34,764 nt of DNA from a virus (lineage: Duplodnaviria > Heunggongvirae > Uroviricota > Caudoviricetes). Under the pieces are notes generated by a model. The model saw only the letters and a program-made list of their open reading frames with translations, was not told the DNA's origin and ran no database searches. Each line of letters opens with the position of its first letter. Within the stretch, counting starts at the first letter, position 1. A program made the translations under genes and the position numbers. This document shows positions 7,408 to 29,704 of this stretch, piece by piece. Location of the stretch: the IMG/VR virus record IMGVR_UViG_2671180568_000001; one strand, written 5' to 3'.

Positions 7408-7986
7408 TCAGGGTTCGCCGGTGGCTGACACAACGGGATTTGTCGCCGGAAATTTTTTATACAGCGTCGATATGCCCACATCAAAAATCAGTGCAACACG
7501 CTGTCGGGATTCTCCGGCCGCAATCAACCGGCCAGCCTGAGCCCATTCATCAGGCGTCAGCTTCGGCCTACGACCTCCGATCCTGCCTTGTGCCCGGGCT
7601 GCATCCAGCCCGGCGCGGGTTCGTTCGACGATTAACTCGCGTTCCATTTCTGCAAGAGCGCCCATGATGTGAAAGAAAAATCGCCCCATCGGGGTTGAGG
7701 TATCAATACTGTCGGTCAGGCTTCTGAAATTAACCCCTCGCTGGCGAAGCTCTTCAGTCATAGAGACAAGATGGCGCATGCTACGCCCGAGCCTGTCGAG
7801 CTTCCAGACAACGAGAGTATCACCGGCATTAAGTTGCCTGAGTGCGCGATTTAACCCTGGCCTGTTTGTCGATTTACCGCTGATTTTATCCTCGAAAATT
7901 AGCTCACATCCCGACCGTTCCAGCGCGTCACGCTGTAGCGCGGTATTTTGTTCATTTGTTGATACGCGCACATAGCCAACCTGCAT
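7408..7986 (-). CDS. serine recombinase, Hin/Gin/Cin/Pin-type DNA invertase
   Basis: N-terminus [13 protein letters not shown]... with catalytic-Ser context and a C-terminal HTH; GAGGG RBS before ATG at 7986 (ORF track uses an upstream TTG). Sits next to a hix-like site. Confidence 0.88.
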
Positions 7987-8040: not shown

Positions 8041-8066
8041 TTTTCTTAAACGTTGGTTTAGGAGAA
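8041..8066. other. hix/gix-like 26-bp crossover site (invertase-proximal): TTTTCTTAAACG-TT-GGTTTAGGAGAA
   Basis: Imperfect dyad of 12-bp half-sites around a central TT; the palindrome-arm identity begins exactly at the central dinucleotide (8053). Confidence 0.6.
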
Positions 8067-8405
8067 GCGGCTAAAAGGAATGTAGGGACAGGGGCAAATC
8101 AGATACCTGATATGGGTAGCTTCACGCTTTCTGTTTCAGGTACTGGATATCAAAAATTACCATCAGGTTTTATTCTTCAGTGGGGCTCAATCGGCGCACC
8201 AGGCATTGCACAGGATGTAGTAACCCATTTCCCGATTGCATTTCCAAACAGATGTCTGCGTGTTTTGGTCTCACAAGACTACACACCAGATAGCGGGGCT
8301 GTTGGTTATATTGCCTGTGCAGGTTTTAGTCCCGACCCGGTTAAATTTATATCCAGAGCCAGTACTCCTGGCCTCGGCGCTTCATTTTTAGCGTTAGGCT
8401 GTTAA
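8053..8405 (+). CDS. tail-fibre variable C-terminal cassette Hv1, promoterless mirror copy
   Basis: Encodes the same residues as the C-terminus of H (...[16 protein letters not shown]...LALGC); begins at the crossover site with no start codon of its own. Confidence 0.5.
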
Positions 8406-8426
8406 TTTAGCTATATGGAGTGAAAA

Positions 8427-8867
8427 ATGAATTACATATATTCCGTGACTACAAACTCTTTCTATCCGCTGGAGATGAAAGAGGATTACACTCAAGCTGA
8501 CTCATGGCCAGATGATGCTGTTGAAGTTGATGAGCAAGCGTATATTGAGTTTTCCGGATTACCGCCGAAAGGAAAAATCCGTATCGCTGGAGAAAATGGT
8601 TTTCCTGCATGGTCTGAAATTCCACCACCAACACATGAGGAACAGATTGCTGCAGCCGAACTGGAAAAGCAGCAACTGATTAATCAGGCCAACGATTATA
8701 TGAACAGTAAACAATGGCCTGGTAAAGCGGCTATTGGTCGCCTGAAAGGTGAGGAACTGGCGCAATATAATTTGTGGCTGGATTATCTGGACGCACTGGA
8801 ACTGGTCGATACCTCCAGTGCTCCAGATATTGAATGGCCTACGCCTCCGGCAGTTCAGGCCAGATGA
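8427..8867 (+). CDS. tail fibre assembly protein Tfa1, mirror copy
   Basis: 146-aa ORF identical in translation to 10936..11376. Confidence 0.55.
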   Translation: MNYIYSVTTNSFYPLEMKEDYTQADSWPDDAVEVDEQAYIEFSGLPPKGKIRIAGENGFPAWSEIPPPTHEEQIAAAELEKQQLINQANDYMNSKQWPGKAAIGRLKGEELAQYNLWLDYLDALELVDTSSAPDIEWPTPPAVQAR

Positions 8868-9441
8868 CATCCGGCGCGGTGCTGGTATCTGTTGCCGTCA
8901 CCGCGTCAATGTAATCCAGCACGGCGTTAAGTCGGGTTGTTTCTGCCTGCGTCAACTTCCGTCCGGCCTGTAATTTCAGCTGAATCAGACTAATGGAAGC
9001 CATTGCTGCATCAATCAGTGACTGGCGCTGTGCTTCTGCCGCGTCTACTGCGGCACTATGCTGTGCCTCAGTATCCGTCACCCATTTCTCACCATCCCAT
9101 TTATCATATGGCGTTAACGGGGCGATAGTGGTTGTATTTTCAGGGTAATCACCCGGAGCTGTGATTTCTTTCGATTCTCCTGTTTCGGTGCTATAGATGA
9201 TTTCACCGCGATGGTCTGGCACATATTCCCATGAGTTAAAATCTGCAGAACGGCAGATTGCATAACCAGCTTTATGTGTAACTGGTGCATCTAAACAAGA
9301 ACATGCCGGGATACCGACGCCAACCGCAAGATATTCAGTTGATGTGGAAATATATTCCCGCGTTTCACCATCATAATTATAAATGGTAATGTCTCCCGCT
9401 TTTATGGCAATGAGTTCGTTATTTAATACGGCTTTATTCAT
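8839..9441 (-). CDS. tail fibre assembly protein Tfa2, mirror copy
   Basis: 200-aa ORF identical in translation to 10362..10964. Confidence 0.55.
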   Translation of the reverse strand: MNKAVLNNELIAIKAGDITIYNYDGETREYISTSTEYLAVGVGIPACSCLDAPVTHKAGYAICRSADFNSWEYVPDHRGEIIYSTETGESKEITAPGDYPENTTTIAPLTPYDKWDGEKWVTDTEAQHSAAVDAAEAQRQSLIDAAMASISLIQLKLQAGRKLTQAETTRLNAVLDYIDAVTATDTSTAPDVIWPELPEA

Positions 9442-9891
9442 CAGGCAGCCCTCACGATATAATTAAAGGCAATGTTACGAGGTCGGTTTTCGTTTGCAGT
9501 TGGAACAACTCTGGAAGCATCGAATGTTACTCGCTTTGCATAACCACCTTTAATTGAATCAGATGAAGCATCTCCGATGACGCTGGTTGTAAAAACGCCA
9601 GAATCAGAAGGGTAGGTATTAAACCTGACATCCACTAATGCACCAATTATATTTCGAATGGCATCTCCCTGTGACGAAAGCAAGCTACGGTTAGTATCTA
9701 TTCCTCTTCCGTCATCCCAGCCACGAATGAACTCACCACGTAAATCAGGCAATTTATTTGTCGGGTAAGCCTTTGCCAGTTCCGGGTATTCTTCAGCAGA
9801 AAAAGCCGCACCGTTGCATTTCAGCCAGCCTGTTGGCGGAGTGGCGGAAGGCCACGGAACAGGCACACCAACGGGTAATGCCGAACCTTCT
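9441..9891 (-). CDS. alternative tail-fibre C-terminal cassette Hv2, mirror copy, running into the N gap
   Basis: Same protein as 9902..10362; ends ...RNIAFNYIVRAA. Confidence 0.45.
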
Positions 9892-9901
9892 NNNNNNNNN
9901 N
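9892..9901. other. run of 10 N (assembly gap) beside the palindrome axis
   Basis: Literal N characters; the mirror positions 9902-9911 read ttggtttggg. Confidence 0.99.
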
Positions 9902-10362
9902 TTGGTTTGGGAGAAGGTTCGGCATTACCCGTTGGTGTGCCTGTTCCGTGGCCTTCCGCCACTCCGCCAACAGGCTGGCTGAAATGCAACGGTGCGGCTT
10001 TTTCTGCTGAAGAATACCCGGAACTGGCAAAGGCTTACCCGACAAATAAATTGCCTGATTTACGTGGTGAGTTCATTCGTGGCTGGGATGACGGAAGAGG
10101 AATAGATACTAACCGTAGCTTGCTTTCGTCACAGGGAGATGCCATTCGAAATATAATTGGTGCATTAGTGGATGTCAGGTTTAATACCTACCCTTCTGAT
10201 TCTGGCGTTTTTACAACCAGCGTCATCGGAGATGCTTCATCTGATTCAATTAAAGGTGGTTATGCAAAGCGAGTAACATTCGATGCTTCCAGAGTTGTTC
10301 CAACTGCAAACGAAAACCGACCTCGTAACATTGCCTTTAATTATATCGTGAGGGCTGCCTGA
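9902..10362 (+). CDS. alternative tail-fibre C-terminal cassette Hv2 (receptor-binding tip, promoterless)
   Basis: Begins with the crossover-site peptide GLGE; the C-terminal NIAFNYIVRAA matches the conserved end of P2/Mu-type fibre tips as recalled. Confidence 0.55.
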
Positions 10363-10964
10363 TGAATAAAGCCGTATTAAATAACGAACTCATTGCCATA
10401 AAAGCGGGAGACATTACCATTTATAATTATGATGGTGAAACGCGGGAATATATTTCCACATCAACTGAATATCTTGCGGTTGGCGTCGGTATCCCGGCAT
10501 GTTCTTGTTTAGATGCACCAGTTACACATAAAGCTGGTTATGCAATCTGCCGTTCTGCAGATTTTAACTCATGGGAATATGTGCCAGACCATCGCGGTGA
10601 AATCATCTATAGCACCGAAACAGGAGAATCGAAAGAAATCACAGCTCCGGGTGATTACCCTGAAAATACAACCACTATCGCCCCGTTAACGCCATATGAT
10701 AAATGGGATGGTGAGAAATGGGTGACGGATACTGAGGCACAGCATAGTGCCGCAGTAGACGCGGCAGAAGCACAGCGCCAGTCACTGATTGATGCAGCAA
10801 TGGCTTCCATTAGTCTGATTCAGCTGAAATTACAGGCCGGACGGAAGTTGACGCAGGCAGAAACAACCCGACTTAACGCCGTGCTGGATTACATTGACGC
10901 GGTGACGGCAACAGATACCAGCACCGCGCCGGATGTCATCTGGCCTGAACTGCCGGAGGCGTAG
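10362..10964 (+). CDS. tail fibre assembly protein Tfa2, cognate chaperone of Hv2
   Basis: 200-aa ORF overlapping the Hv2 stop (ATGA); C-terminal ...APDVIWPELPEA typical of Tfa/gpG-like chaperones. Confidence 0.7.
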   Translation: MNKAVLNNELIAIKAGDITIYNYDGETREYISTSTEYLAVGVGIPACSCLDAPVTHKAGYAICRSADFNSWEYVPDHRGEIIYSTETGESKEITAPGDYPENTTTIAPLTPYDKWDGEKWVTDTEAQHSAAVDAAEAQRQSLIDAAMASISLIQLKLQAGRKLTQAETTRLNAVLDYIDAVTATDTSTAPDVIWPELPEA

Positions 10965-11376
10965 GCCATTCAATATCTGGAGCACTGGAGGTATCGACCA
11001 GTTCCAGTGCGTCCAGATAATCCAGCCACAAATTATATTGCGCCAGTTCCTCACCTTTCAGGCGACCAATAGCCGCTTTACCAGGCCATTGTTTACTGTT
11101 CATATAATCGTTGGCCTGATTAATCAGTTGCTGCTTTTCCAGTTCGGCTGCAGCAATCTGTTCCTCATGTGTTGGTGGTGGAATTTCAGACCATGCAGGA
11201 AAACCATTTTCTCCAGCGATACGGATTTTTCCTTTCGGCGGTAATCCGGAAAACTCAATATACGCTTGCTCATCAACTTCAACAGCATCATCTGGCCATG
11301 AGTCAGCTTGAGTGTAATCCTCTTTCATCTCCAGCGGATAGAAAGAGTTTGTAGTCACGGAATATATGTAATTCAT
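10936..11376 (-). CDS. tail fibre assembly protein Tfa1 (gpG-like), cognate chaperone of the expressed fibre
   Basis: 146-aa ORF directly downstream of H; C-terminal ...APDIEWPTPPAVQAR. Confidence 0.8.
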   Translation of the reverse strand: MNYIYSVTTNSFYPLEMKEDYTQADSWPDDAVEVDEQAYIEFSGLPPKGKIRIAGENGFPAWSEIPPPTHEEQIAAAELEKQQLINQANDYMNSKQWPGKAAIGRLKGEELAQYNLWLDYLDALELVDTSSAPDIEWPTPPAVQAR

Positions 11377-11397
11377 TTTTCACTCCATATAGCTAAA

Positions 11398-12357
11398 TTA
11401 ACAGCCTAACGCTAAAAATGAAGCGCCGAGGCCAGGAGTACTGGCTCTGGATATAAATTTAACCGGGTCGGGACTAAAACCTGCACAGGCAATATAACCA
11501 ACAGCCCCGCTATCTGGTGTGTAGTCTTGTGAGACCAAAACACGCAGACATCTGTTTGGAAATGCAATCGGGAAATGGGTTACTACATCCTGTGCAATGC
11601 CTGGTGCGCCGATTGAGCCCCACTGAAGAATAAAACCTGATGGTAATTTTTGATATCCAGTACCTGAAACAGAAAGCGTGAAGCTACCCATATCAGGTAT
11701 CTGATTTGCCCCTGTCCCTACATTCCTTTTAGCCGCTTCTCCTAAACCAAGGTTTTTGAGAACCTCAGCAACCAATCCGGCGTCGGCCATTTCTTTTAGT
11801 GCGTTCGCAATCAGCGGGTATTGCTTATGCGGGTTAGCCTTTGCCTCATGATCTTTCATGAGTTTGTCGGCGTAGCTCTTCACCTCGATGACTGCATCGT
11901 CGACATATTTACGGGTTGCCAGCACGACTGACGGGTCGATTTTTAAGGTGATCGCCGAAGTGCTCGAGACAACGAGAATCATGCGAATGGTCTGCGTTCG
12001 GCCGCTCCCCTCAGCCAGTAACGGTTTATAGGTTTCCGGGCAGTTGGCGACAGCAATCAGGATACCTTCATCATCGTAAAGACCGATTTCGCGGATAAAG
12101 AAACCGCCCTCGTTTTCCGGGATGATCTGCTCGGCAATAATCTGACCGGTGTCGTTAGCATCTACTGCCAGTGAATTTAGCAGCTCGCGGCGACGCTCGT
12201 TAATGAGCTTTGTCTGAGCCGGGTCAGGTGTCGGCAGTGTGCCGTTTCCGTCCCCGACGGCCATTTGTGTAATATTCAGTTTAGTACCGAGTGCGGTCGC
12301 GTTTGCCAGTCGCGCCGCGCCCTGATGGGTCAGAATGGCAAAATATTTAGTCGTCAT
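11398..12357 (-). CDS. H: tail fibre protein H (constant N-terminal part fused to cassette Hv1)
   Basis: 319-aa ORF with P2 gpH-like N-terminus ([22 protein letters not shown]...MAVGDGNG); its C-terminus is duplicated at 8053..8405. Confidence 0.85.
11737..11762. other. hix/gix-like 26-bp crossover site inside H (minus strand TTCTCAAAAACC-TT-GGTTTAGGAGAA)
   Basis: Dyad half-sites; encodes [10 protein letters not shown] at the constant/variable junction of H; the palindrome arm ends at its central dinucleotide (11750). Confidence 0.6.
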
Positions 12358-12965
12358 GCGCTTACTCGCAGGTTATCAATCAGATGAATGGCCGAAGCCG
12401 GACAAAACTCACCACCGACGACAATCTCCCCGGAGGCATAGGGATATACGGTTAACAGGTCGCCGTCGTAGCAGCTTGCGCCCACATAAGCGCGCCCGGT
12501 GGTGCTCAGGCTGATAGCGAGCCCGGTCAGGTGTCGGCTTGCCGGTTTTGCCCCTTCAATAAGGCGCTCGAGCTCGAGATACATCTCATCGGTGATGCCG
12601 GTCTCGAGTACGCCAACCACAAGCCGGAAAGTTCCCGGCTCTTCGTTGAGCTCCCACCACTCTTTAACCTCAATCAGATAGCCCAGCGGCTCCACCACGC
12701 GCCGTAATGCGGCGATGGTGCCTTTGTGGGCATGAACATAAAATGCGGAGGCGATAACGCTGCGTTTTGTGGCCTCCGGCCATCTCTCATCCCACCGGTC
12801 AACCGAAAATGCCCACGCCAGATACGGCAGCAGCCGCACCGGGCAAGTGCGCCAGTTCCACAACGTGCGAAGCGGTACCGGCACACGCTCAATATCTGCG
12901 GCCGCGCGGGCGGCGGCGACCTCGAGCAGCGATGAGCCAACAGGCAACAGTCGCTTATTACTCAT
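12354..12965 (-). CDS. I: baseplate assembly protein I
   Basis: Start chosen at [26 protein letters not shown] (ATG at 12965, overlapping the J stop); the ORF-track 244-aa form is an N-terminal extension. Confidence 0.85.
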
Positions 12966-13866
12966 CGGCCCCCCCGTCAGCGATGTGGTATTCGGTGCAA
13001 CAGGATGCCTGGTATTTACTGAGCACAATGTCAGCCAGTGGCGCGGCGAGTTCGACACGCTGCACACCTTCGACATGCAGGGCGGCATAGATGGCCGACT
13101 GACGAATGTCCCGGCCCAGTCGCTGTTGTGCGCTGATGTATGCCTTCAGTTTTTCCTCTGCGGCCTGACGGATTGGCTCGGCCTCCGGCCCCGGATAAAA
13201 ATACAGAGTTGCATCAATCTGATACGGCACGATTTCAGCACTCTGCACCGTCACCCTGTCGCCAACCGGGCGCACCTCTTCAGCATTTAGTGCTTTTTCA
13301 ACGATGGTCAGAAGCTCATCGGATGCGGTGCCGTCATCCTCGCGTGACAGCACGGTGATGGTCACACAGGCCGGTGACGGGCTGACAACCGAGATATCAG
13401 CGACCCGACCGTCGGCGCTGCGACCGTGGTATTCATATGCGCCGACCGGACCAGCCACGCTGAGCCCTTCATAAGCCTGTTGTGCGCGTAACCGTAAATC
13501 GGTATCAGATTCCATGACGGCGGGTGTCGGCGGGATAGTGCTGTCATCGGCGGGCGTCACAATCTGTCGCGCGGTGTTGTTGTTTCCGGCCATCACATCA
13601 AGGTCGTTATTACTCGCATAAGCCAGTGTGCAGCCTTTCGCCGCATCGTTTACACGCTGACGCCAGATAACCTCCCGATAGGCGTTTTCCTCCAGATACT
13701 TCACCAGTGGCTCAGACTCAAGGGCGAGAGTACGCGCAACAGCGTCCTGTTGTTCTTCAGGGTAAAGCGAGACCAGCGTCGCTTTGCGTTCCGCGAGAAT
13801 AGTCTCAAAATCCAGCGTTTCCACGACGTCAGGCGCGGGGAGCTGGCTCAGGTCGATGTTTGCCAT
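12958..13866 (-). CDS. J: baseplate assembly protein J
   Basis: 302-aa ORF MANIDLSQLPAPDVVETLDFETILAERKA..., P2 gpJ-like. Confidence 0.9.
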   Translation of the reverse strand: MANIDLSQLPAPDVVETLDFETILAERKATLVSLYPEEQQDAVARTLALESEPLVKYLEENAYREVIWRQRVNDAAKGCTLAYASNNDLDVMAGNNNTARQIVTPADDSTIPPTPAVMESDTDLRLRAQQAYEGLSVAGPVGAYEYHGRSADGRVADISVVSPSPACVTITVLSREDDGTASDELLTIVEKALNAEEVRPVGDRVTVQSAEIVPYQIDATLYFYPGPEAEPIRQAAEEKLKAYISAQQRLGRDIRQSAIYAALHVEGVQRVELAAPLADIVLSKYQASCCTEYHIADGGADE

Positions 13867-13870
13867 AAAT

Positions 13871-14218
13871 TCAACTCACAGGAATAGTCAGTGACAGGGT
13901 TTTGCCGGTGTCCCGGGTCTCGCCGGTCAGCTCAACAATCATCTGACCGTTAAACTGACGTTCTACCGTCAGCGAGCTGATGCTGATGCGCGGCTCCCAC
14001 TTCAGCAGCGCCATATAACAGGCGCACATAATTTGCAGTCTCAGCGCGTCGGTCTGCGGCATATCAATCAGGGAGAACAACAGCGAGCCATAATCGCGAC
14101 GCATCACGCGAGAGCCGACCGGCGTTCGCAAAATATCGCCACAGCTCTGACGGATGTGATCGGCGTCAGTGATGGCGCGCCCGGTCTCCCTGTTCATACC
14201 GATATAACGGGTCGTCAT
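13871..14218 (-). CDS. W: baseplate protein W (gp25-like)
   Basis: 115-aa ORF between V and J. Confidence 0.9.
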   Translation of the reverse strand: MTTRYIGMNRETGRAITDADHIRQSCGDILRTPVGSRVMRRDYGSLLFSLIDMPQTDALRLQIMCACYMALLKWEPRISISSLTVERQFNGQMIVELTGETRDTGKTLSLTIPVS

Positions 14219-14856
14219 TTCGTGCCCTCCGTCCAGGCTCCACCTCTTTGCACACCGCCGTGACCGTGGCTGTCGACCTGAACGCCGTTGGATTTAAACG
14301 TACCGTCGGTGTGTTCGATGTTTCCGCGCATGGTGCCGCCTTGTTGTACCTCAAGCGTCGCCGTCGTCAGTTTGTTGGTGCAGACCACTTCCGGTGTATC
14401 GAGGGTGATGCGGGTCTCGGCTTTCACCGTCACCAGCGGTACCGTCGCGGTGATGGAATCCGACGCCGTAACGTCTGCGGTTTTAATGCCGCTCACGGTC
14501 AGCGCGCCGGTCTCCGGCTCGTACTCGATAACAGCCCCATCAGGAAAGGTGATGTGAAAAGCATCAGCCGACGCCGACGGCGCGGGGTGGTCATCCGAAA
14601 AAATGCCGGGCAGCACAAAAGCGGTGTCGAGTTCACCACCCACGGCCAGCAGTAAAACCTGCTCGCCCACAGACGGAGCCCACCAGACACGTGAACGACC
14701 GGCGCGTGTGGTCAGCCACTGAAGCCAGTCGGTAACAATGCCGCCAGTCTGGACGCGACAGCGCCCGTCATCGAGGTCAACTTCGACGACGACGCCGGTA
14801 CGTATCAGGTTGCGAAGGAGGCGTAAAGCGTCCTGAAGAGTTGCGCGAGTATTCAT
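14215..14856 (-). CDS. V: baseplate spike/assembly protein V
   Basis: Start chosen at MNTRATLQDALRLLRNL (ATG at 14856); the upstream extension in the ORF track is rejected. Confidence 0.85.
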   Translation of the reverse strand: MNTRATLQDALRLLRNLIRTGVVVEVDLDDGRCRVQTGGIVTDWLQWLTTRAGRSRVWWAPSVGEQVLLLAVGGELDTAFVLPGIFSDDHPAPSASADAFHITFPDGAVIEYEPETGALTVSGIKTADVTASDSITATVPLVTVKAETRITLDTPEVVCTNKLTTATLEVQQGGTMRGNIEHTDGTFKSNGVQVDSHGHGGVQRGGAWTEGTK

Positions 14857-14932
14857 ACAAGGAAGGATGCCGCCCGGTGCTCTGGACGGCAATTAATGCG
14901 GGTTTTACCAGATATGGCACAACATACAAAAA

Positions 14933-16276
14933 CTAGCTTGGGGTAACTGTAACCTGACGAGAAAAAACAACAGGCTCCTTCAATTGCTCACATATAATTT
15001 TAAAATTAATAACTCCAGAGCCAATCGTTAAGGGAATGATGACTATTTCCTCATACTCAACAGTTAAGCTCTGTAACACTTTTTTCGCACGCAACGTGAT
15101 TTTATGGTCCTCTTTCATGACCCACTCATCTTGGTTAACTGTTCCTAAATCAGCCATCCGTTTAATTATTGCTGGCACTTCGAAATGAGGTTTAGCCATT
15201 ACCATCGATGTATCATCAAAAATACCCATCCTAAAATTTTCGAGTGACATTATAGCACTGAGTCTTTTTTTATGCTTACTTATTGGGGACTCAGGGATTT
15301 TTAATTTCGGCTCTTTTATAAATAAGTCTTCATTAGAACCTTTAAGCACTATTAGGAATTCAGGAAAATCAATCTCAACATAAACATTTGACGCAAAAGT
15401 CCTCCCATTATTTCTTAAAACGGGCTTCACTGTAATTGCATTGTTTTTGTAATTACAGTGCAATCTCATTTTTTTATTATATAAATCCACATCTTTATCA
15501 GTAGGCAGTGAAGAGTTATATGATTCAATCTCATCAATGGTGATAGTGTCCTTCAACTCAAGAGGTACCGCTTCCTTGCATAGTTGTGGAAGGTAATCCT
15601 GATAAGTCGACTCCACATCCACCGTCAAAGCTAAGTCATTATCAATCATGCTCAGCTCTAATTGAGGTGCATCGCTATGTAATTGGCTTTCATATTCGCG
15701 GACTTTTTCCCTTAATTTTCTATTTTCATTAGATAGCTCAGCCAACTCGGCGGTAATCTCTTTAGATGCGACCTGGTCACCGCGCACCCATCCTATTCGT
15801 GGATTTCGTCGCATTACTTTTGGTAAGGCGATAGCAACCTTCGTCGCTAACTCATCAATTGTCTCCCAAAAATCACACATTTTGTTAGCTTTAGCTTTTT
15901 CAATAAAAGCATTTAGTTGCTTTTCTTTTTGAGGGTCACTTTCTCGTTCATGTGGTTTTGTTAAAACGTCCCTCCCTCTAATAAAAGCCAACACCGGTAT
16001 ATTTAATGATTTAGCATAGTTATATTCCATTTCAGTATAGCTAATACCATCTTTAGAAACGGACCCATACTTATGCCCAATGATAATCACATAATAATCA
16101 CTAGCATCAATAGTCTCCTTTATTATATCCCACTGCTCAGAGTCATCAGCGCTAAACATCTCCATGCCAACTGGAAAGTGGTATAAACTAAGGACCGTTT
16201 CTATGATTTTTTTGCGAGCATCAATTAAATCGACGTATGTAGAGCTCACAAATACTTGATATTTTTTATTTTCCAT
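14933..16276 (-). CDS. cargo protein with DUF4062-like N-terminal domain and uncharacterised C-terminal region; candidate single-gene defence factor
   Basis: AT-rich 447-aa ORF between S and V; N-terminal motifs YQVFVSSTYVDL..ARKK, HFPVGMEMF, YYVIIIGHKYGS as recalled for DUF4062; AGGA RBS before ATG at 16276. Confidence 0.75.
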   Translation of the reverse strand: MENKKYQVFVSSTYVDLIDARKKIIETVLSLYHFPVGMEMFSADDSEQWDIIKETIDASDYYVIIIGHKYGSVSKDGISYTEMEYNYAKSLNIPVLAFIRGRDVLTKPHERESDPQKEKQLNAFIEKAKANKMCDFWETIDELATKVAIALPKVMRRNPRIGWVRGDQVASKEITAELAELSNENRKLREKVREYESQLHSDAPQLELSMIDNDLALTVDVESTYQDYLPQLCKEAVPLELKDTITIDEIESYNSSLPTDKDVDLYNKKMRLHCNYKNNAITVKPVLRNNGRTFASNVYVEIDFPEFLIVLKGSNEDLFIKEPKLKIPESPISKHKKRLSAIMSLENFRMGIFDDTSMVMAKPHFEVPAIIKRMADLGTVNQDEWVMKEDHKITLRAKKVLQSLTVEYEEIVIIPLTIGSGVINFKIICEQLKEPVVFSRQVTVTPS

Positions 16277-16313
16277 AACATCCTCACTTGTATAGAAAAT
16301 AAAATACATAAAA

Positions 16314-16781
16314 TCAATCAATAGATCTAGCCGCCTCAGCTAAAGAAACCATAATTATGTCATGAATCATATTTTTTGATTCATGATCAAACCCGATAAG
16401 CATTCGGGCGTCATACTGTACCGGCGCACTGTTTCGCCCAGGCTTATCTTTGAGACCGTACTGATGCACATTCGCCATCCGTTGTACCTTGCCGGTAAAT
16501 TCCACGACCGCCGAGTCATTCCCCGCTGTGGCTTTCATAAAGCGACTGGTGCGGAGCTTAGCGAACATTTCCCGCTTAACCCGGCCTGTTTTGGCTTTTA
16601 CCGGCTGGCGTTTTCGGGCGGCGTAAGGTGTCCCGTCCGGGGCTTTCTGCATTTTAATCCGGCGCTGTTGACGGGCTCGCAGGGTCTTAGCGATATCTGC
16701 GGCCATTCTGCGACGGGCGGCAGGAGACAGCGCTGCTATCAGCCCCGTGAGCGTATCGTCAAAGGGTTTAAAGTCATTCAT
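16314..16781 (-). CDS. S: tail completion protein S
   Basis: 155-aa ORF downstream of R, P2 gpS-like. Confidence 0.85.
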   Translation of the reverse strand: MNDFKPFDDTLTGLIAALSPAARRRMAADIAKTLRARQQRRIKMQKAPDGTPYAARKRQPVKAKTGRVKREMFAKLRTSRFMKATAGNDSAVVEFTGKVQRMANVHQYGLKDKPGRNSAPVQYDARMLIGFDHESKNMIHDIIMVSLAEAARSID

Positions 16782-17241
16782 GCAATCGACTCACGAGCTC
16801 ACCGTTAACATACAGCTCAACTGGCCGGGTAACGGGCTCCGGCGGCTGCGGCTCTTCAGCCTGTTCAACGTGAAGCTTATCCCCCTGTTCTTTAACGATA
16901 GTGCGCTCGGTCAGCATCAGACTGATACTGATATCGACGCTGTCGTTGTCGTTGATATCGGCAAAATAGGTGAATCCCTTTTTACGCCCTTCATCGGTCG
17001 TCATAATGTCAGCCTGATGTATGCGTAGCCACGCCTGAATCGGGACGAGTAACAGCTCGATATCATCCGTGAAATCGGTCACCACCACATTCAGCGTGTA
17101 CCGGTTCTCAAACGACAGCGACGTCGCCAGCGTCGAGGCCAGATTCCCGTTGTCGATAAAGACACGCATCATATCGGGGTTTCGTGCCAGCACCGGCACG
17201 GCGTCAGTTAAGGCTTTTCGCAGACTCTTCGGCTTGTACAT
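16774..17241 (-). CDS. R: tail completion protein R
   Basis: 155-aa ORF MYKPKSLRKALTDAVPVLARNPDMMRVFIDNG..., P2 gpR-like. Confidence 0.88.
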   Translation of the reverse strand: MYKPKSLRKALTDAVPVLARNPDMMRVFIDNGNLASTLATSLSFENRYTLNVVVTDFTDDIELLLVPIQAWLRIHQADIMTTDEGRKKGFTYFADINDNDSVDISISLMLTERTIVKEQGDKLHVEQAEEPQPPEPVTRPVELYVNGELVSRLHE

Positions 17242-17494
17242 CGATTTTATCCTGACAGTGTTTTATCGTTCTGACCTGAAGCGCACAGCGCTCGAGGGCG
17301 CTTTCGAGCTGGCGTATATCCGCGCTCAGGTCGCCATTGGTAGTCGGGTCACTTCCCGGCATCGGGCAAAGGCTGACCTTCGGACATGCGTTGTAAACAA
17401 TCACCGGCGTCGGCACAGGCGGCGCGCTGGTGCAACCGGCGCACAGCATCAGGTAAATCAGCGCTATACCAGCGGCGAAGCTGTTCATTTTCAT
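17204..17494 (-). CDS. lysC: LysC-like outer-membrane lipoprotein spanin (Rz1-like), embedded in and extending past lysB
   Basis: Internal start MKMNSFAAGIALIYLMLCAGCTS gives a signal peptide plus lipobox (LCAGC); overlaps lysB out of frame. Confidence 0.5.
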   Translation of the reverse strand: MKMNSFAAGIALIYLMLCAGCTSAPPVPTPVIVYNACPKVSLCPMPGSDPTTNGDLSADIRQLESALERCALQVRTIKHCQDKIDVQAEESAKSLN

Positions 17495-17762
17495 TGAGTA
17501 ACCTCGTAATGGTCTGTTCCCGACGCTGTGCCCGCGCTCCGGCATCGATGAGCTCACCGCGCAGTAAGACCTGAGCGGTCTCATTTTCCCCACGGATACG
17601 GGAGGCCGTTTTAAGCTGGCTTTTCAGCATGGTAATCACCGTTTTTTGGTCACCGGCGACTTTATTCGCCCGTTCAAAGGAACGGGTCAGACTGGTGTTT
17701 TCGTGGCGCATCCAGAGCAGCCCGGCCACGGCCAGCACTAACAACACGACTATCGTTTTCAT
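17349..17762 (-). CDS. lysB: LysB-like inner-membrane spanin (Rz-like)
   Basis: 137-aa ORF with N-terminal TM helix (IVVLLVLAVAGLLW) and charged coiled-coil body. Confidence 0.75.
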   Translation of the reverse strand: MKTIVVLLVLAVAGLLWMRHENTSLTRSFERANKVAGDQKTVITMLKSQLKTASRIRGENETAQVLLRGELIDAGARAQRREQTITRLLNENEQLRRWYSADLPDAVRRLHQRAACADAGDCLQRMSEGQPLPDAGK

Positions 17763-18268
17763 TTCACCCCCTTCAGGCAGTAGGTGCGCTCACGAAAGCG
17801 GCGGTTTTCGACCCCGGCATTACGCTCACCATTCACAAACACCCAGCGGGTGAGCTGGTCACAGGCCTGCCACCATTGCCGGTGTTTCAGGTGATACACC
17901 AGCGTCGAGCGACAGGCCGCGCCGGTGCCGACGTTAAAAGCGAAGCTGACCAGCGCGTCATAGACGGCGGGTGGCATGTCCACCGGCACACAGACCGCGA
18001 GTCGTTTCTCGACGTTCAGCACGTCGGCGACCAGATTCGCGGCGGCTTCCTTCTCGGTGATATCCCGTTTCGGTACCACCCCGGCAGTGTGGCCGATGCC
18101 TGACGTCCACACACCCGCGCTGCACTGGTAAGGACGCAACCGGCACCCCTCGAGGTCGGCAATCAGCGCGAGCCCTTCCGGCGAGGTGTGAAGCAAACGA
18201 AAATCAGGCACCAGTGCCGCCAGCGCCAGCACGACGGCCACACTGCAACGTTTAACGAATGAGCCCAC
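17759..18268 (-). CDS. K: endolysin, T4-lysozyme-like (GH24), with N-terminal signal-anchor-release (SAR) segment
   Basis: GTG start at 18268 preceded by AAGGGGG; hydrophobic CSVAVVLALAALV, then EG..L..Y.........GIGHT catalytic-region pattern. Confidence 0.75.
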   Translation of the reverse strand: MGSFVKRCSVAVVLALAALVPDFRLLHTSPEGLALIADLEGCRLRPYQCSAGVWTSGIGHTAGVVPKRDITEKEAAANLVADVLNVEKRLAVCVPVDMPPAVYDALVSFAFNVGTGAACRSTLVYHLKHRQWWQACDQLTRWVFVNGERNAGVENRRFRERTYCLKGVK

Positions 18269-18473
18269 GAATAACCCCCTTATCAATCCCCATCGAGACG
18301 AGATAGCGGTATTTCTTTCGCTGGTACCAGAAGTTAACCAGCGCGGTAAAAATGGCGCAGCTTCCCCCGACATAAAGCGCGAGCCGTTCCGGCGTCTGCG
18401 TACCGAAATACGCCAGCACCACTGACAGCCAGTAGGTCAGAAAGGTTGTGATTTTATCCACAGTCAGTCCCAT
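18252..18473 (-). CDS. Y: holin (two TM helices; pinholin-like)
   Basis: 73-aa ORF with two hydrophobic helices, directly upstream of and overlapping the endolysin. Confidence 0.65.
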   Translation of the reverse strand: MGLTVDKITTFLTYWLSVVLAYFGTQTPERLALYVGGSCAIFTALVNFWYQRKKYRYLVSMGIDKGVIRGLIR

Positions 18474-18667
18474 AAATTCACGGTCTCCGATACCGGTGCG
18501 GTGTCAACTTCAGGCAGACTGACCGCCGTGCCATGTGGCAGGACGACGCCCAGCTCGGCGAGTCCCGGATTAGCCAGCAATACCGCCTCGACCACACCTT
18601 CAGTGCGCCCGTAATGGCGCTGACATAACGTGTCGAGCGTGTCGCCCTGATGCGCGAAGATGTTCAT
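18464..18667 (-). CDS. X: tail protein X
   Basis: 67-aa ORF between L and the holin, same size and position as P2 gpX. Confidence 0.8.
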   Translation of the reverse strand: MNIFAHQGDTLDTLCQRHYGRTEGVVEAVLLANPGLAELGVVLPHGTAVSLPEVDTAPVSETVNLWD

Positions 18668-19167
18668 CAGATTTGCCCCACGATGCAGCGCGCTTTGTCC
18701 TGGATACGGGCAACCGACCAGCGCATGTCACGCCACATTTCATCGATGGTGTCATCGATGCTGTCGGCCTTTTTGTCACCTTTGGCGCTCGCATCAACGC
18801 CCCGGTAACGCTCGTACAGCGTCGCGGTCGTCATCGAGCAAACAGCGTTGAAGTAGTGAAAAACCCGCACACTTTCGCCGTCGAGTTCATCCGTCGGCAC
18901 ATCCTCAAGTCGCGCGTAACCGGCGGCGAGCTGAAGGTCGCGCCAGTCGGTTAACTCGGCGTTGGTCTCCGCCATCGCGGTTTTAATCGCCCGGCGCAGA
19001 CGCACCGGCGTCACGGTCTGCTCGAGGCGCATTTCTTCGCGCATGCGCTTCGGATCAACATCCGGGAAAAAGGCCGTGTTTTTAATCACCGGCTCGTCAA
19101 CCGGCACCGGCGGGATGACCATCGGGTCGCGCTGTTGCGCCGGGTTATTCATCACAATCATGGTCAT
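18667..19167 (-). CDS. L: head completion/stabilisation protein L
   Basis: 166-aa ORF downstream of M. Confidence 0.85.
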   Translation of the reverse strand: MTMIVMNNPAQQRDPMVIPPVPVDEPVIKNTAFFPDVDPKRMREEMRLEQTVTPVRLRRAIKTAMAETNAELTDWRDLQLAAGYARLEDVPTDELDGESVRVFHYFNAVCSMTTATLYERYRGVDASAKGDKKADSIDDTIDEMWRDMRWSVARIQDKARCIVGQI

Positions 19168-19264
19168 GAGTACCTCAGTAAATAGGTGGGCGGTGGACGC
19201 CGGTCGCAGTTACGGTGAATCACCGACATTGACCAGCGTGCCGCCCGGCGCGGGGCGCGTTCTG

Positions 19265-20023
19265 TTAACCGGTGACTTTCTTCGGGCGTCCCCGCCCTCG
19301 TTTCACCGGTGAATCTTGTTTTTTCGCGGGTGCCTTTTTCGCGGCTTTCGGCGCCGTTTTTTTGACGACGACCGGTTTCGGGTTCAGCTCACGAGTGAGG
19401 GTCTCAATGTCCTTTCTTACCCCGGCGTTGGTGTCGAGCTGTAAGGCGCGTTGCAGGTGCGCCAGTGCATCAGGAAGCTGACCGGCATCACGCAGGGTCA
19501 GACCGGTGACCTTATGCAGTCGGGCGCGCACTTCGTCAGGCATATCGGCGGCATCGGTCAGCCCGATGACCTCGAGCAGTTGCGAAGCGTCGACCGGCTC
19601 ACCGGCGATACGGGCGCGGAGAGCCGCGAGCGCGACCTCTTCGGCCAGCATATAAGGCGCGGGGCGGGAATGATTTTCCGGCATAGACAGGTCAAAACGC
19701 AGGGCATAGCGCGCAATCTCGACAGCGCCGGTGATATCCCCCGCATCCAGACGCCAGAGCATCACCGTCATCAGAATGTCATCCTGTGCGCCGGTGCCGC
19801 TTTCCAGTACGCCAGCGACCCACGGCAGGTACAGCGGGAGTAATTCGCGTTTTTTATCCGCTTTGCGTTCTTTAGAACGAATCGCTGATAGCGTCCGGCG
19901 GTCTGCGGCCAGCTTGACGAGCATTTGCTCGTAAGGTGAGGCATGACGCAGCGGGGCATTGTCCCGCTGCGATGCCCTGACAGCCGAGACCCGCATCGCG
20001 TGACGCTGTGCGGGGGTTGCCAT
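19265..20023 (-). CDS. M: terminase endonuclease (small) subunit M
   Basis: 252-aa ORF downstream of N, P2 gpM-like. Confidence 0.9.
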   Translation of the reverse strand: MATPAQRHAMRVSAVRASQRDNAPLRHASPYEQMLVKLAADRRTLSAIRSKERKADKKRELLPLYLPWVAGVLESGTGAQDDILMTVMLWRLDAGDITGAVEIARYALRFDLSMPENHSRPAPYMLAEEVALAALRARIAGEPVDASQLLEVIGLTDAADMPDEVRARLHKVTGLTLRDAGQLPDALAHLQRALQLDTNAGVRKDIETLTRELNPKPVVVKKTAPKAAKKAPAKKQDSPVKRGRGRPKKVTG

Positions 20024-20026
20024 CGG

Positions 20027-21232
20027 TTACGCCTCCACGCCGTCAGTGGTGCCGGTTTCAGCCGGGGAAGTTTCGCCGTCAGCGACAGGCGCGCTGGCCG
20101 GAGCGGTGCCGGTCAGAGACTGCATTGCCTTGACCATCTCAGCAGCAAATACCGCCGCGCTGACCGGTTCGGTGGTGGCGGTTTCTTCCTGCTCGAGAAT
20201 TTCGATATTCTCAATCAGGCAACCGGCCTCGTAGTCTTCGATAACAAAATCGACTTTTACCTGCTCGTAGTTCTCCACCTGATCCAGTTTCGGATTCTCG
20301 ACGATGTGGCGGCGGTGGCCGTCTTCGTACAGATAGATTGAAATGTTATCCAGCGTGGTGATGAAAACGCTGTTTGCCGGGAAGAACGGCGCGCGCACCG
20401 CCTGAAGCTGACCGATGGTTTTCTGGCTGATAATCAGCTCACCGGCGAGCTGTTCGCTGTTCGCCTGGAATTTGTTAATCATCGGGAAGTATTTGTCGGT
20501 CAGGATACGGCGACCACAGATAACGACCATTTCCGGGTTTTCACGGTGAATTTCCGCGACCAGCGACTCGAAAGCATCCATGACCATCGCGTCGAGGTTG
20601 GCGTAATGACCACCCTTATCTTTTGAGCCGATTTTGATGGTGTCGGAAATCACTTTTCCGTCATCATCGGTAATGCAGGACATTACGCGCTCGGGCGCAT
20701 CGTTGCGGTATTTCTGCAACCAGCCGACAGCCACGTCCTGAAGCAGCGGATTCTGAGCACGGTCAGAAGTCGCCGCCCGGCTCACGCCGTTAAAGCCGAT
20801 AGTGATGTAATCCAGCGCCTGACGCTTGATGATGGCGTTACGGATTCGGATTTGGAAATCCTGAAAACGCGCCCACAGGTCGAGTTTGTTGTACTTCAGG
20901 TGATAGTCGAAGTTCACCGGGTGGCAGAAATAGCGATATGCATCGAGCTTCGCGAAATCAGCGGTTTTACGCTCGACACCTCCGTCGGTGTCAGCGGTGC
21001 TGGCAATGGAGCCGGTCACATCGATGCCGACTTTCTCTTCGGTCAGCTCGGAAACGGTCACCATGTTGATGAGCTTCAGGAAGCTGGACGACTGCTGAAT
21101 TTTGTCAAACAGGGTCTGAGTGACCGACGGCTCGACAGTGAATTTTTTGTCGAGGTCGCTGGCCTCGATGCCGTTCAGTTCGGCGATACGGCTCAGATAT
21201 TTATTGAATTGAAAACGGGTTTCTTTACGCAT
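20027..21232 (-). CDS. N: major capsid protein N, with an Ala/Thr/Pro/Glu-rich C-terminal tail
   Basis: 401-aa ORF; body P2 gpN-like; last ~45 aa low-complexity. Confidence 0.9.
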   Translation of the reverse strand: MRKETRFQFNKYLSRIAELNGIEASDLDKKFTVEPSVTQTLFDKIQQSSSFLKLINMVTVSELTEEKVGIDVTGSIASTADTDGGVERKTADFAKLDAYRYFCHPVNFDYHLKYNKLDLWARFQDFQIRIRNAIIKRQALDYITIGFNGVSRAATSDRAQNPLLQDVAVGWLQKYRNDAPERVMSCITDDDGKVISDTIKIGSKDKGGHYANLDAMVMDAFESLVAEIHRENPEMVVICGRRILTDKYFPMINKFQANSEQLAGELIISQKTIGQLQAVRAPFFPANSVFITTLDNISIYLYEDGHRRHIVENPKLDQVENYEQVKVDFVIEDYEAGCLIENIEILEQEETATTEPVSAAVFAAEMVKAMQSLTGTAPASAPVADGETSPAETGTTDGVEA

Positions 21233-21263
21233 GGGTTATGTGTTCCTTCGGGTTTATCAGGGG

Positions 21264-22127
21264 TTAGCAGTCGGTCAGCGTGGAGCCCGCCGAATCACCG
21301 TCGCCACCGGCGCTTAACTTGCGGCGCGGTTGCGTTTTGTCTTCGGTGTTTTCCAGCGTGTTTTTGATGGTGCTGAATTGCTGCGTGGTGGCTGCGGCCT
21401 GTTCGTTCAGCGCTTTTTTGACGGTAGCGACATCACTTTCAAGCTGGCTGAAACGCACCTCAGCGCTTTCGCCGCCGGTCTGCACCTGCACGGCGATGGC
21501 GGTCACGGCTTCGTGCACGTCACCGAATCGCGCATCGTCGTCAGCCTGTTTACGGCTGAAGATGCCTTTCACGGTGTCGCTGATTTTGGTCAGCAGGTTG
21601 TCGGGCAGGTCTTCGAATTCCAGCTCGGCAAGGGTTGCCACTGAGAACAGGTCGCCCGGCTGGTCTTTCTTACCGGCCAGTGGGTTTTGTTGTACGCGGG
21701 AGCAGAATTGCAGGTATTCGGTACCGAGGCTTGCCGGGTCATCGGTTACCGCCAGCCCGATGAGGTGACATTTGCCGGTATTGGCAAAGTTCGGGCGAAT
21801 TTCCATCGAGGTGTAAACCTTCTGGCCTTTCGCCAGCATCGCGAGCAGGTTGTCGAGCGGGGCAATTTTGCCGAACAGCGCCAGCTTGCCGTTGAGTGCC
21901 GAGTCGTCGTCGATCACTTGCGCTTTCACTTCCGTGACATCGCCATAGCGGCAAAACGGGCTGTCGGGAATAACGCTGCGGATATGCTCGAGGTTAATGC
22001 GACAGCCGTAGACGCGCGGGTCAAAGCCGTCGGCCATGTCCTGAATATCGGTCGCACTGATGACGCGACCGTCGCAGGTGTCACCCTCGACGCCGATGCG
22101 AAACCATTTCGAATTTTTTTTAGCCAT
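21264..22127 (-). CDS. O: capsid scaffolding protein O
   Basis: 287-aa ORF MAKKNSKWFRIGVEGDTCDGRVISATDIQDMADGFDP..., P2 gpO-like. Confidence 0.9.
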   Translation of the reverse strand: MAKKNSKWFRIGVEGDTCDGRVISATDIQDMADGFDPRVYGCRINLEHIRSVIPDSPFCRYGDVTEVKAQVIDDDSALNGKLALFGKIAPLDNLLAMLAKGQKVYTSMEIRPNFANTGKCHLIGLAVTDDPASLGTEYLQFCSRVQQNPLAGKKDQPGDLFSVATLAELEFEDLPDNLLTKISDTVKGIFSRKQADDDARFGDVHEAVTAIAVQVQTGGESAEVRFSQLESDVATVKKALNEQAAATTQQFSTIKNTLENTEDKTQPRRKLSAGGDGDSAGSTLTDC

Positions 22128-22291
22128 GAGTCAGGTGTCCTGAGTTGGGTTATCGGGTCGGTTGTAGTTTCCCGACTCAGCCGCTCACCAGCCACCGGTT
22201 ACAGAAGTGCAACCCCTGACACAACAGGGGGTTAGCGATTCATCCCCCCTGAATCTTTAGCCTTGCCGTGTACTCATCACGGCGAGGTTTT

Positions 22292-25089: not shown

Positions 25090-25098
25090 GTATGAATG

Positions 25099-25136
25099 CA
25101 AAAAATCCAGAGTCCATTATAATAATGACTCTGGAT
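25099..25136. terminator. 10-bp stem hairpin ATCCAGAGTC / GACTCTGGAT with U-tract on the minus-strand transcript; terminator for the cargo pair, possibly bidirectional with Q
   Basis: Perfect inverted repeat 25105..25114 and 25127..25136, 12-nt loop; plus-strand caaaaaa at 25099..25105 gives UUUUUUG after the hairpin on the minus strand. Confidence 0.5.
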
Positions 25137-25145
25137 GAAAATGTT

Positions 25146-25832
25146 TTATTGCTTATCTTGTGGTGGTGGAACCTCTTTTTCTAAATTATCTACATACTCT
25201 CTAATATTGAATGCTTTGTTTTTCCTTATTTCGGTAGTGTTAACCTTACTAACACCATCACGAATGTTTTTATTTATGGTGTCTATTAATTTTTGTCTTT
25301 CTTGTTCTGTTTTTATTATTTCACTTAAGAATGACTTTGCGTTTCTTGAAATGTCCGTCTGTCTATTAATGAATAGTATCGCATACACTGAAAAAACCAA
25401 GCAAGTAGTCGTTAGTGCGGAATTAAAAAATACCCCATAATAAACATTAACTTTTGTTATTGACGCTGATAACGTTAGTGATATCAAAAAAAACAAAATC
25501 AGGGTAAAAATATATGCAATGGTTACTTTGTTTTTAGTGGTGTCAAGAATGTATGAAGTTCTTTGATCATCAAAGTAATCCTTTATCCTTGATGGAGTGT
25601 TTGCGGGGAGTTCTAACTCCTTTATTTTATCATCAGCATCAATTAGTCGCTTAAACATGAGGCTAATGATTACGGCGCTAAAGACAGAGATCCCCTTTGA
25701 AATTATAGGATCGAAATCAATTAAAAATGAGTATTTTGAATAAACAAAAACAATAACAAAACCACATATAAGCCCAATTACAATTGAGCTTGCTATGTTT
25801 TTTGCATATGTTTGTAACGTATTGTTTATCAT
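25146..25832 (-). CDS. cargo membrane protein (four predicted TM helices plus charged C-terminal tail); candidate effector of a two-gene module
   Basis: AT-rich 228-aa ORF with four hydrophobic ~20-aa segments; start ATG overlaps the upstream gene stop (ATGA). Confidence 0.7.
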   Translation of the reverse strand: MINNTLQTYAKNIASSIVIGLICGFVIVFVYSKYSFLIDFDPIISKGISVFSAVIISLMFKRLIDADDKIKELELPANTPSRIKDYFDDQRTSYILDTTKNKVTIAYIFTLILFFLISLTLSASITKVNVYYGVFFNSALTTTCLVFSVYAILFINRQTDISRNAKSFLSEIIKTEQERQKLIDTINKNIRDGVSKVNTTEIRKNKAFNIREYVDNLEKEVPPPQDKQ

Positions 25833-27366: not shown

Positions 27367-27386
27367 GAAATCCCTCCCAATAGGAT

Positions 27387-29703: not shown

Positions 29704-29704
29704 T

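Follow-up and report, generated by a model that had tools for sequence, protein, structure and literature searches.

A 3.7-kb palindrome in a P2-like Escherichia coli prophage is very probably one invertible tail-fibre segment written twice around a scaffold gap

Related inversion systems

The P segment of e14 and its invertase PinE form a tail-fibre inversion system of E. coli K-12 (stfP/ycfK, tfaP, tfaE, stfE' and pinE), arranged as a constant fibre part, a site, an Hv-Tfa pair facing a Tfa-Hv pair, a second site and the invertase. The same layout, with a segment of likewise about 1.8 kb, occurs in the window analysed here, a 34,764-bp stretch of E. coli PPECC42. On sequence identity, e14 is the closest relative of this locus, ahead of the Gin/G system of Mu: the invertase is 81% identical to PinE, Tfa2 93% to TfaE, Hv2 61% to StfE and Tfa1 61% to TfaP. 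The e14 site, CTCTCGAAAACC TT GGTTTGGGAGAA, is also nearly identical to the invertase-proximal site described below. The two systems differ in their hosts and in parts of the fibre. Whereas e14 is a lambdoid remnant, the host element here is a P2-like myovirus prophage, apparently complete and located at yfiB; its constant fibre part is a Phage_tail_fib N-terminus of the P2 H type, and the Gp53-like C-terminus Hv1 shows only a weak relationship to StfP (27%).

Like this locus, the G segment of Mu has 26-bp sites, a 2-bp core inside the tail-fibre reading frame, and a choice of two C-termini, both with a chaperone of their own (S/U versus S'/U'). The invertase is 75% identical to Gin, and its best matches among solved structures, 3UJ3 and 4M6F (E=1e-86), are both deposited as 'DNA-invertase'. 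The Mu gix site, TTATCCAAAACC TC GGTTTACAGGAA, resembles the invertase-proximal site, but its core is TC/GA rather than TT/AA; the G segment is about 3 kb long, its variable parts are unrelated, and Mu is a transposable phage rather than a P2-like one. The Hin/H system of Salmonella and the Cin/C system of P1, both of the Din family, share the recombinase family, which Pfam also assigns here, and the site architecture. Hin flips a flagellin promoter, not coding C-termini, and the inverted repeats of the P1 C segment are long, at about 0.6 kb.

A P2-like prophage remnant in EPEC E2348/69 is integrated at yfiB, as here, and carries a phase-variable locus (NC_011601.1, 2977580-2979467) that was 93 +/- 4% forward in clonal cultures (Goldberg et al. 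2014, PMC4272514 Table S1). The DNA comprising the invertase and its flank (window 7344-8052) is 99.9% identical between the two strains, and the segment plus the invertase side is 96.8% identical. The inverted repeat published for that locus (PMC4272514 Table S1) has essentially the sequence of the inner half-site found here. The loci differ in that E2348/69 has lost all DNA from the H-side crossover core to a pseudo-site inside int, so that its segment no longer joins a tail-fibre N-terminus.

Assembly artefacts at invertible DNA are likewise known, in which the graph branches at the crossover point when reads hold both orientations. The outcome here goes beyond a break: two contig ends appear joined over a 10-N spacer in a chromosome record, giving a formal palindrome.

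Invertase, crossover sites and tail-fibre genes

The invertase gene (7408..7986, minus strand) encodes a 192-residue Pin/Gin-type small serine recombinase with a catalytic N-terminus (Pfam Resolvase, 5e-51) and a C-terminal helix-turn-helix (HTH_7, 1e-12), labelled by PGAP as 'recombinase family protein' (WP_001195984.1). A serine near residue 9-10 is expected of such enzymes, and an alignment with PinE and Gin shows Ser9, in the VRVST motif, to be conserved. Din systems also carry a Fis-bound recombinational enhancer (sis) in the invertase gene's 5' part. A degenerate motif scan of the gene found no clear pair of Fis sites 48 bp apart; weak matches, centred at about 101 and 136-138, occur equivalently in this gene, gin and pinE, a comparison confounded by coding conservation.

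Two inverted 26-bp hix/gix-like sites, each a 2-bp core between two imperfect 12-bp half-sites, flank the region, as in Din-family systems. The invertase-proximal site (8041..8066) reads TTTTCTTAAACG TT GGTTTAGGAGAA, with its core TT at 8053-8054. The tail-fibre-proximal site (11737..11762) reads TTCTCCTAAACC AA GGTTTTTGAGAA, with its core AA at 11749-11750, and lies inside the H reading frame, where it encodes ..VLKNLGLGE... Nowhere else in the window is the AAC[CG]-NN-GGTT core pattern matched convincingly, and both sites can be aligned with those of e14 and Mu. A third match to the pattern, at 30948, was dismissed, as it lacks hix-like half-sites. What looks like a central half-site (9902-9915) belongs to the segment's own far end and is not an additional crossover site. 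Once the palindrome is collapsed, only two sites are left, in contrast to multiple-inversion types (p15B Min, the shufflons and the three-site P2 locus of E2348/69), whose more numerous sites permit more than two arrangements.

Between the sites, two arms carry the same four genes in mirrored order. Arm A (8053..9891) holds the segment in orientation A, with its last 10 nt missing: silent Hv1 (8056-8405, plus strand), Tfa1 (8427-8867, plus), Tfa2 (8839-9441, minus) and a gap-truncated Hv2 (9441-9890, minus). Arm B (9902..11750) is the complete 1,849-bp segment in orientation B: silent Hv2 (9904-10362, plus), Tfa2 (10362-10964, plus), Tfa1 (10936-11376, minus) and Hv1 (11398-11750, minus), the last fused to the constant part of H. 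On both arms, Pfam identifies Hv1 as Gp53-like_C, Tfa1 and Tfa2 as Caudo_TAP, and Hv2 as Collar. The initial annotation had likened each arm to a Mu G-segment unit; the complement of Hv1, Tfa1, Tfa2 and Hv2 in each is as it described, and the e14 P segment replaces Mu as the nearest counterpart.

The constant N-terminal part of the tail-fibre protein H (11751..12357, minus strand) comprises residues 1-202 plus one base and contains the Phage_tail_fib N-terminal domain (1e-61). That domain lies outside the segment, and two opposed sets of C-terminus and chaperone lie inside it, which is the arrangement of tail-fibre host-range switches of the Mu G, P1 C and e14 P type, where the promoter is likewise outside the segment. 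Joined in silico, H with Hv1 gives an open in-frame fusion of 319 residues and H with Hv2 one of 355 residues, matching the PGAP proteins of closed genomes, WP_000208951.1 (319 aa) and WP_071345229.1 (355 aa).

Geometry of the palindrome

A position-by-position comparison shows that 8053..9891, 1,839 bp long, and 9912..11750 are perfect reverse complements of each other (0 mismatches); each pair of mirror positions adds up to 19803. A perfect inverted repeat of 1.84 kb cannot be a product of chance. Identical translations are encoded by the mirrored open reading frames 8056-8405 (plus) and 11398-11747 (minus), 8427-8867 (plus) and 10936-11376 (minus), and 8839-9441 (minus) and 10362-10964 (plus). 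The identity begins exactly at the core TT of the invertase-proximal site and ends at 8052/11751, where G stands opposite G directly outside the two core dinucleotides. A repeat search returned 8041-9891 and 9912-11762 at '100%', a rounded figure, as the match is carried on into outer half-sites that are alike only in part; the palindrome ends exactly at 8053 and 11750.

The only run of Ns in the window is the 10-N gap at 9892..9901, which is the mirror of 9902..9911 (TTGGTTTGGG), so the gap is confined to one side of the axis. No continuous sequence crosses the axis of symmetry, which abuts the N run. The mirror coordinates with their sum of 19803, the one-sided gap and arms that stop at the central dinucleotides of hix-like sites had all been read from the sequence at first annotation, and each holds in this comparison with its limits unchanged. 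Arm A is short by exactly 10 nt, the number of Ns, an agreement that is mechanistically unexplained.

Collapse of the palindrome onto closed genomes

With one arm removed, the window is 32,915 bp long and 100% identical to the closed chromosome of PCN033 (0 mismatches, 0 gaps). Two collapsed models were built from the left flank, one arm and the right flank: model A with arm A, in which CCCAAACCAA was substituted for the 10 Ns, and model B with arm B. Over 6,352 bp in each case, model A matches closed FORC 064 and model B closed 1190 without a single mismatch. The closed genomes show CCCAAACCAA at the position of the gap, and the perfect match of model A to FORC 064 identifies it as the sequence that the Ns replace. 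Across all 11 closed genomes at an identity of at least 99.9%, the locus measures 3,352 bp, which is the 5,201-bp query less 1,849 bp. Orientation B is found in 1190 and PCN033, and orientation A in FORC 064 (by sequence identity) and eight others (by bit score and annotation). Exchange takes place exactly at the core dinucleotide: mirror identity ends at 8053 and 11750, and outside the cores no difference separates genomes closed in orientation A from those closed in orientation B.

The palindrome itself was not recovered: none of 3,301 matching records covers at least 80% of the 5.2-kb query. The head-to-head junction, reconstructed as a 254-bp sequence, reaches at least 80% coverage in 0 of the 2,262 complete genomes with a match, is absent from all 5,426 complete E. 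coli genomes, and has no match among viral or metagenome contigs.

The source record, CM003707.1 (NZ_CM003707.1), is a gapped chromosome-level assembly that is byte-identical to window 2427-14867, the same Ns included. Four draft contigs (L012, L013, L017 and L018) stop 0, 8, 11 and 10 nt, respectively, from the crossover core, and L017 has the same form as the left part of the window. In the consensus of another isolate (L010), an N stands in both inner half-sites at the A/G difference that is the sole base distinguishing them. The window itself contains one junction specific to orientation A and one specific to orientation B.

These data bear out what the initial annotation had proposed: one segment of about 1.85 kb in an element shorter by that length, two orientations, an assembler join at a scaffold gap (the gapped record, and independent drafts that end 0 to 11 nt from the boundary) and an active switch (the two junction types in the window, the N in L010 and the inversion measured in clonal E2348/69 cultures). 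It had also suggested comparison with closed genomes of related prophages, where the segment proves single-copy in all 11, and had named an independent closed assembly with the same palindrome as contrary evidence; no such assembly was found.

Alternative explanations

The 3.7-kb palindrome is almost certainly a scaffolding artefact, in which the single 1,849-bp invertible segment is written twice, in opposite orientations, around the gap. Were it instead a genuine inverted duplication, PPECC42 would have two head-to-head copies forming a true near-perfect palindrome, with the Ns masking a few central bases. The deposited sequence itself speaks for this, and the gap leaves the centre unsequenced; yet the axis falls exactly on that unsequenced point, not one mismatch separates the arms, the closed genome of the sibling strain PCN033 differs solely in having one copy, and the junction is missing from the 5,426 complete genomes. 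It would also read ..AAACC AA TT GGTTT.., with two core dinucleotides (AA and TT), which is not a product of hix-site recombination: in the established Hin/Gin mechanism, conservative recombination at a 2-bp core cannot yield two adjacent core dinucleotides. Moreover, perfect palindromes above a few hundred bp are not known to be stably maintained in sbcCD+ E. coli. A genuine duplication is thus highly improbable, and so is a true palindrome with three crossover sites that arose from aberrant invertase action between sister chromosomes and is somehow tolerated in E. coli.

Equally little credence attaches to two separate prophage or segment copies elsewhere in PPECC42, fixed in opposite orientations and collapsed by the assembler, which would entail neither heterogeneity within the culture nor evidence of an active switch. 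The graph would indeed branch at the same points around any repeat that had two types of junction, and many E. coli strains have several related tfa cassettes (a median of 2 places per genome, although the palindromic query doubles the count). However, the invertase and left flank are single-copy in 25 of the 25 complete genomes carrying both, including PCN033, and the flanks of both window junctions belong to one prophage collinear with PCN033. It is unlikely, too, that the PPECC42 reads held only orientation A and that arm B and the H junction were imported by reference-guided scaffolding or gap filling, in which case the window would not show the switch flipping in the PPECC42 culture. Arm B could derive from a reference if the assembly was guided on PCN033, which is in orientation B, is 100% identical across the prophage and, with its PPECC33_ locus tags, belongs to one laboratory series with PPECC42, and CM-type records are often made by ordering contigs on a reference. 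Against this, a contig from orientation A alone would run unbroken into H, independent drafts of other isolates share the break points as well as an ambiguity base, and coexisting orientations have been measured at the homologous E2348/69 locus. We infer that PPECC42 reads, and not a reference, supplied both window junctions, that two separate WGS contigs meet at the Ns, and that scaffolding proceeded as outlined below; most likely, both orientations were present in the sequenced culture.

Proposed switch and significance

In the proposed model of a single segment written twice, the adjacent Pin/Gin-type invertase flips the 1,849-bp segment of the P2-like prophage beside yfiB at its two inverted 26-bp hix-like sites. 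With one crossover site inside H, inversion joins the constant 202 residues to either of two C-termini. One orientation produces the 319-residue fibre with the Gp53-like C-terminus of Hv1, co-expressed with the chaperone Tfa1, and the other the 355-residue fibre with the Collar domain of Hv2, co-expressed with the TfaE-like chaperone Tfa2; exchange of the fibre C-terminus would thereby switch receptor specificity. With both orientations in the culture, the assembly graph would have branched at the crossover cores. One contig would have run from the invertase side into the segment in orientation A, ending 10 nt before its far end, and a second from the H side into the segment in orientation B; chromosome-level scaffolding would then have abutted them with 10 Ns, leaving the segment twice, head-to-head.

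The artefact aside, the biology here is familiar and little is added to it: tail-fibre switches of the Pin/Gin type in E. coli prophages are textbook material, and E2348/69 has already provided a measurement of inversion at this particular locus. Its value for curation is that the public record NZ_CM003707.1 holds a 1,849-bp artefactual duplication, which swells the prophage to 34.8 kb, yields gene calls that are doubled or cut short (Tfa1 and Tfa2 twice each, and two partial fibre fragments) and could be misread by automated scans as a palindrome or a novel cassette. Contig ends within about 10 nt of the core, ambiguity bases at half-site differences and head-to-head copies around short N gaps make up a recognisable signature of an active inverton in short-read assemblies.

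Geometry of the tail-fibre palindrome

The tail-fibre cassette of the window consists of two mirrored arms, an orientation-A arm at 8053..9891 and an orientation-B arm at 9902..11750. Base-by-base comparison shows that 9912..11750 is the exact reverse complement of 8053..9891 (0 mismatches in 1,839 bp), with mirror coordinates summing to 19803 and identical translations for the mirrored ORFs. The sole N run of the entire window (10 N, 9892..9901) is the mirror image of 9902..9911 (TTGGTTTGGG). The mirror sum, the one-sided N run and the identical translations described in the initial annotation are thus confirmed. So is its claim that the arms stop exactly at the central dinucleotides of hix-like sites: mirror identity ends at 8052/11751, and the palindrome begins and ends exactly on the core dinucleotides of two 26-bp sites. 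In a repeat search the arms stretched to 8041/11762 because the outer half-sites flanking the cores are partly similar.

The palindrome centre (9902-9915, TT GGTTTGGGAGAA) is a core followed by an inner half-site, so that either arm spans one complete segment, core to core. Each carries Hv1, a Gp53-like tail-fibre C-terminus, a facing pair of Caudo_TAP chaperone genes (Tfa1/Tfa2), and Hv2, a Collar-domain tail-fibre C-terminus (Pfam). The window holds an orientation-A-specific junction between 8052 and 8053 and an orientation-B-specific one between 11750 and 11751.

Invertase, crossover sites and fibre switch

The adjacent invertase (7408-7986, minus strand) is a 192-aa protein with Resolvase and HTH_7 domains (Pfam), 81% identical to e14 PinE and 75% to Mu Gin. 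Its top solved-structure matches, 3UJ3 and 4M6F, are both deposited as 'DNA-invertase' (E=1e-86), and the active-site serine, Ser9, is conserved. A Fis enhancer would be expected near the 5' end of this gene; a degenerate Fis-motif scan gives weak matches but no clear pair 48 bp apart, and coding conservation confounds the comparison. The invertase-proximal site (8041-8066) reads TTTTCTTAAACG TT GGTTTAGGAGAA and the H-proximal site (11737-11762) reads TTCTCCTAAACC AA GGTTTTTGAGAA; both are similar to the crossover sites of e14 and Mu.

The H-proximal site falls in frame within the tail-fibre gene H (..VLKNLGLGE..). Orientation B joins the 202 constant residues of H, a Phage_tail_fib N-terminal domain, to Hv1, giving a 319-aa fibre followed by Tfa1, and orientation A joins the same residues to Hv2 in a fibre of 355 aa with the TfaE-like Tfa2 after it. 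Both products agree with the PGAP gene models of closed genomes. It is a host-range switch of the classical kind, as in Mu G, P1 C and e14 P.

The switch itself belongs to a Pin-type tail-fibre inversion system that is known and already measured. At the homologous locus of EPEC E2348/69, a phase-variable inversion at NC_011601.1 2977580-2979467, with the inverted repeat TTG(G)TTTGGGAGAAG, was found 93 +/- 4% in the forward orientation (Goldberg et al. 2014, PMC4272514 Table S1). Invertase-plus-flank DNA is 99.9% identical between that locus and the window.

Some genomes share the invertase and left flank but differ in the content of the segment. In IMGVR_UViG_3300018486_000049 (6247-8173) that content has 95-98% identity with a stretch of ~230 bp replaced, and the ST865/ST866 genomes reach only 49% query coverage. 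Such diverged or replaced contents suggest cassette exchange inside the invertible segment.

The homologous prophage of E2348/69 is itself a remnant. At about position 6640 of that locus it reads TTCTCCCAAACC AA up to the joint and GGGAAAGAAGAATCG beyond it, that is, the segment end and core AA followed by window sequence from 32824 onward. Within int (32123-33160, plus strand), the window carries a pseudo-hix site at 32810-32835 (TTCACTAAAACG AA GGGAAAGAAGAA), in direct orientation relative to the H-proximal site. The ~21-kb deletion (window 11751..32823) therefore falls exactly on the crossover core, and it looks like an invertase-mediated event at a secondary site.

A single segment in closed genomes

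Eleven complete E. coli genomes match the 5.2-kb locus query at an identity of at least 99.9%, and in all of them the locus measures 3,352 bp, exactly 1,849 bp short of the query. Coverage of at least 80% of this query is reached by none of 3,301 matching records. Two collapsed models were built by placing a single arm between the left and right flanks, model A with CCCAAACCAA substituted for the Ns. Model B is identical to strain 1190 (NZ_CP023386.1) and model A to strain FORC 064 (NZ_CP022664.1), each with 0 mismatches over 6,352 bp; in nature the element is therefore one segment, found facing either way. Orientation B is present in 2 of the 11 closed genomes; orientation A was established by sequence identity in FORC 064 and assigned by bit score and annotation in the other eight.

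The sibling E. coli strain PCN033, which belongs to one laboratory series with the window's source strain PPECC42 (locus tags PPECC33_), has the prophage at an identical position in its closed genome, and the window without one arm (32,915 bp) aligns there gap-free at 100% identity. Both elements of the initial proposal, one segment of ~1.85 kb and two existing orientations, hold against these genomes, and the comparison with closed relatives that it called for found the palindrome in no independent closed assembly.

Other features of the prophage

The window is a P2-like prophage with the gene order D, U, tape measure, E, tube FII, sheath FI, invertase, tail-fibre cassette, H, I, J, W and V, followed by head genes, terminase, portal, gpA, CI and int. 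It opens with a 240-aa hypothetical gene adjoining rplS and closes where yfiB begins. This host gene at the int-side boundary (34282-34764, minus strand) is split by an internal stop into ORFs 34282-34503 and 34525-34764, and is annotated as a pseudogene in PCN033. The gpA replication endonuclease (27267-29703, minus strand; window ORFs 27556-29703 and 27267-27629) also counts as a pseudogene, interrupted by an internal stop, in the annotation of the sequence-identical PCN033 prophage, and the prophage may be replication-defective.

A DUF4062 protein of 447/462 aa (14933-16321, minus strand; Pfam DUF4062, 2e-28) separates the baseplate gene V from the tail-completion gene S, a position that is empty in P2. 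It has no PADLOC or NCBIfam match and is possibly a moron or defence cargo. Two overlapping hypothetical ORFs between the portal gene and gpA (25146-25832, 228 aa; 25829-26812, 327 aa; both minus strand) lie where P2 has its old/tin variable hotspot; they have no Pfam or PADLOC match and only one sub-threshold NCBIfam match. DUF4062 was the only finding when the cargo ORFs were searched with PADLOC, Pfam and NCBIfam.

Origin of the palindromic record

Exact-protein matching places the palindromic arrangement in one record only, GCA_001542545.1 (CM003707.1), whose locus repeats window 2427-14867 byte for byte, the 10 Ns with it. A genome-contig scan for the left junction gave 0 matches and carries no weight either way. 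CM003707.1 is a chromosome-level record with at least this gap, outside the complete-genome set, and belongs to the porcine ExPEC strain PPECC42 (PMC6024092).

Independent draft assemblies of this prophage break at or near the same positions. JBQSND010000002.1 terminates exactly at the crossover core, ABRNNT010000001.1 begins 8 nt within the segment, and a Logan contig of a related variant begins 10 nt within it. ABFXHX010000002.1 begins 11 nt within the segment and continues across all of it to the invertase flank, the same form as the left part of the window, which stops 10 nt short. In QOFU01000003.1, one N stands at position 8 from either segment end (5634 and 7468), the sole difference (A/G) between the two inner half-sites; an N here is the mark that reads of the two orientations leave when merged in one consensus.

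A true 3.7-kb palindrome in the genome is contradicted on several grounds. The gap sits at the axis, and the closed sibling genome PCN033 matches the window minus one arm. The reconstructed 254-bp head-to-head junction is absent among 5,426 complete E. coli genomes, with at least 80% coverage in 0 of the 2,262 that have any match. In viral and metagenome contigs, arm end plus N10 plus arm start gave 0 matches, which speaks only to junctions made of real sequence. The hypothetical junction (..AAACC AA TT GGTTT..) would also contain two core dinucleotides, a product that conservative exchange at a 2-bp core, the established Hin/Gin mechanism, cannot yield. Long perfect palindromes are, moreover, unstable in sbcCD+ E. 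coli.

The alternative of two prophage copies, each fixed in a different orientation, can be rejected, since each of the 25 complete genomes with the element has it only once. A shufflon or other multi-site system was also rejected; two sites only are left after removal of one arm. One caveat is left: scaffolding could have drawn arm B from a reference. That would leave the palindrome an artefact, and heterogeneity of the PPECC42 culture would then be unproven by this assembly.

The simplest reading is that two contigs, each running from a different flank through the segment, were abutted with a 10-N spacer at chromosome scaffolding. The closed genomes and the behaviour of the draft contigs support the initial annotation in this, one invertible segment whose two orientations were joined at a scaffold gap. 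The palindrome is no feature of the genome; it is a mis-join in the public record and should be flagged there. The comparison also provides a reusable short-read signature of an active inverton: an N at the A/G difference between half-sites, or contig ends 0 to 11 nt from the core.
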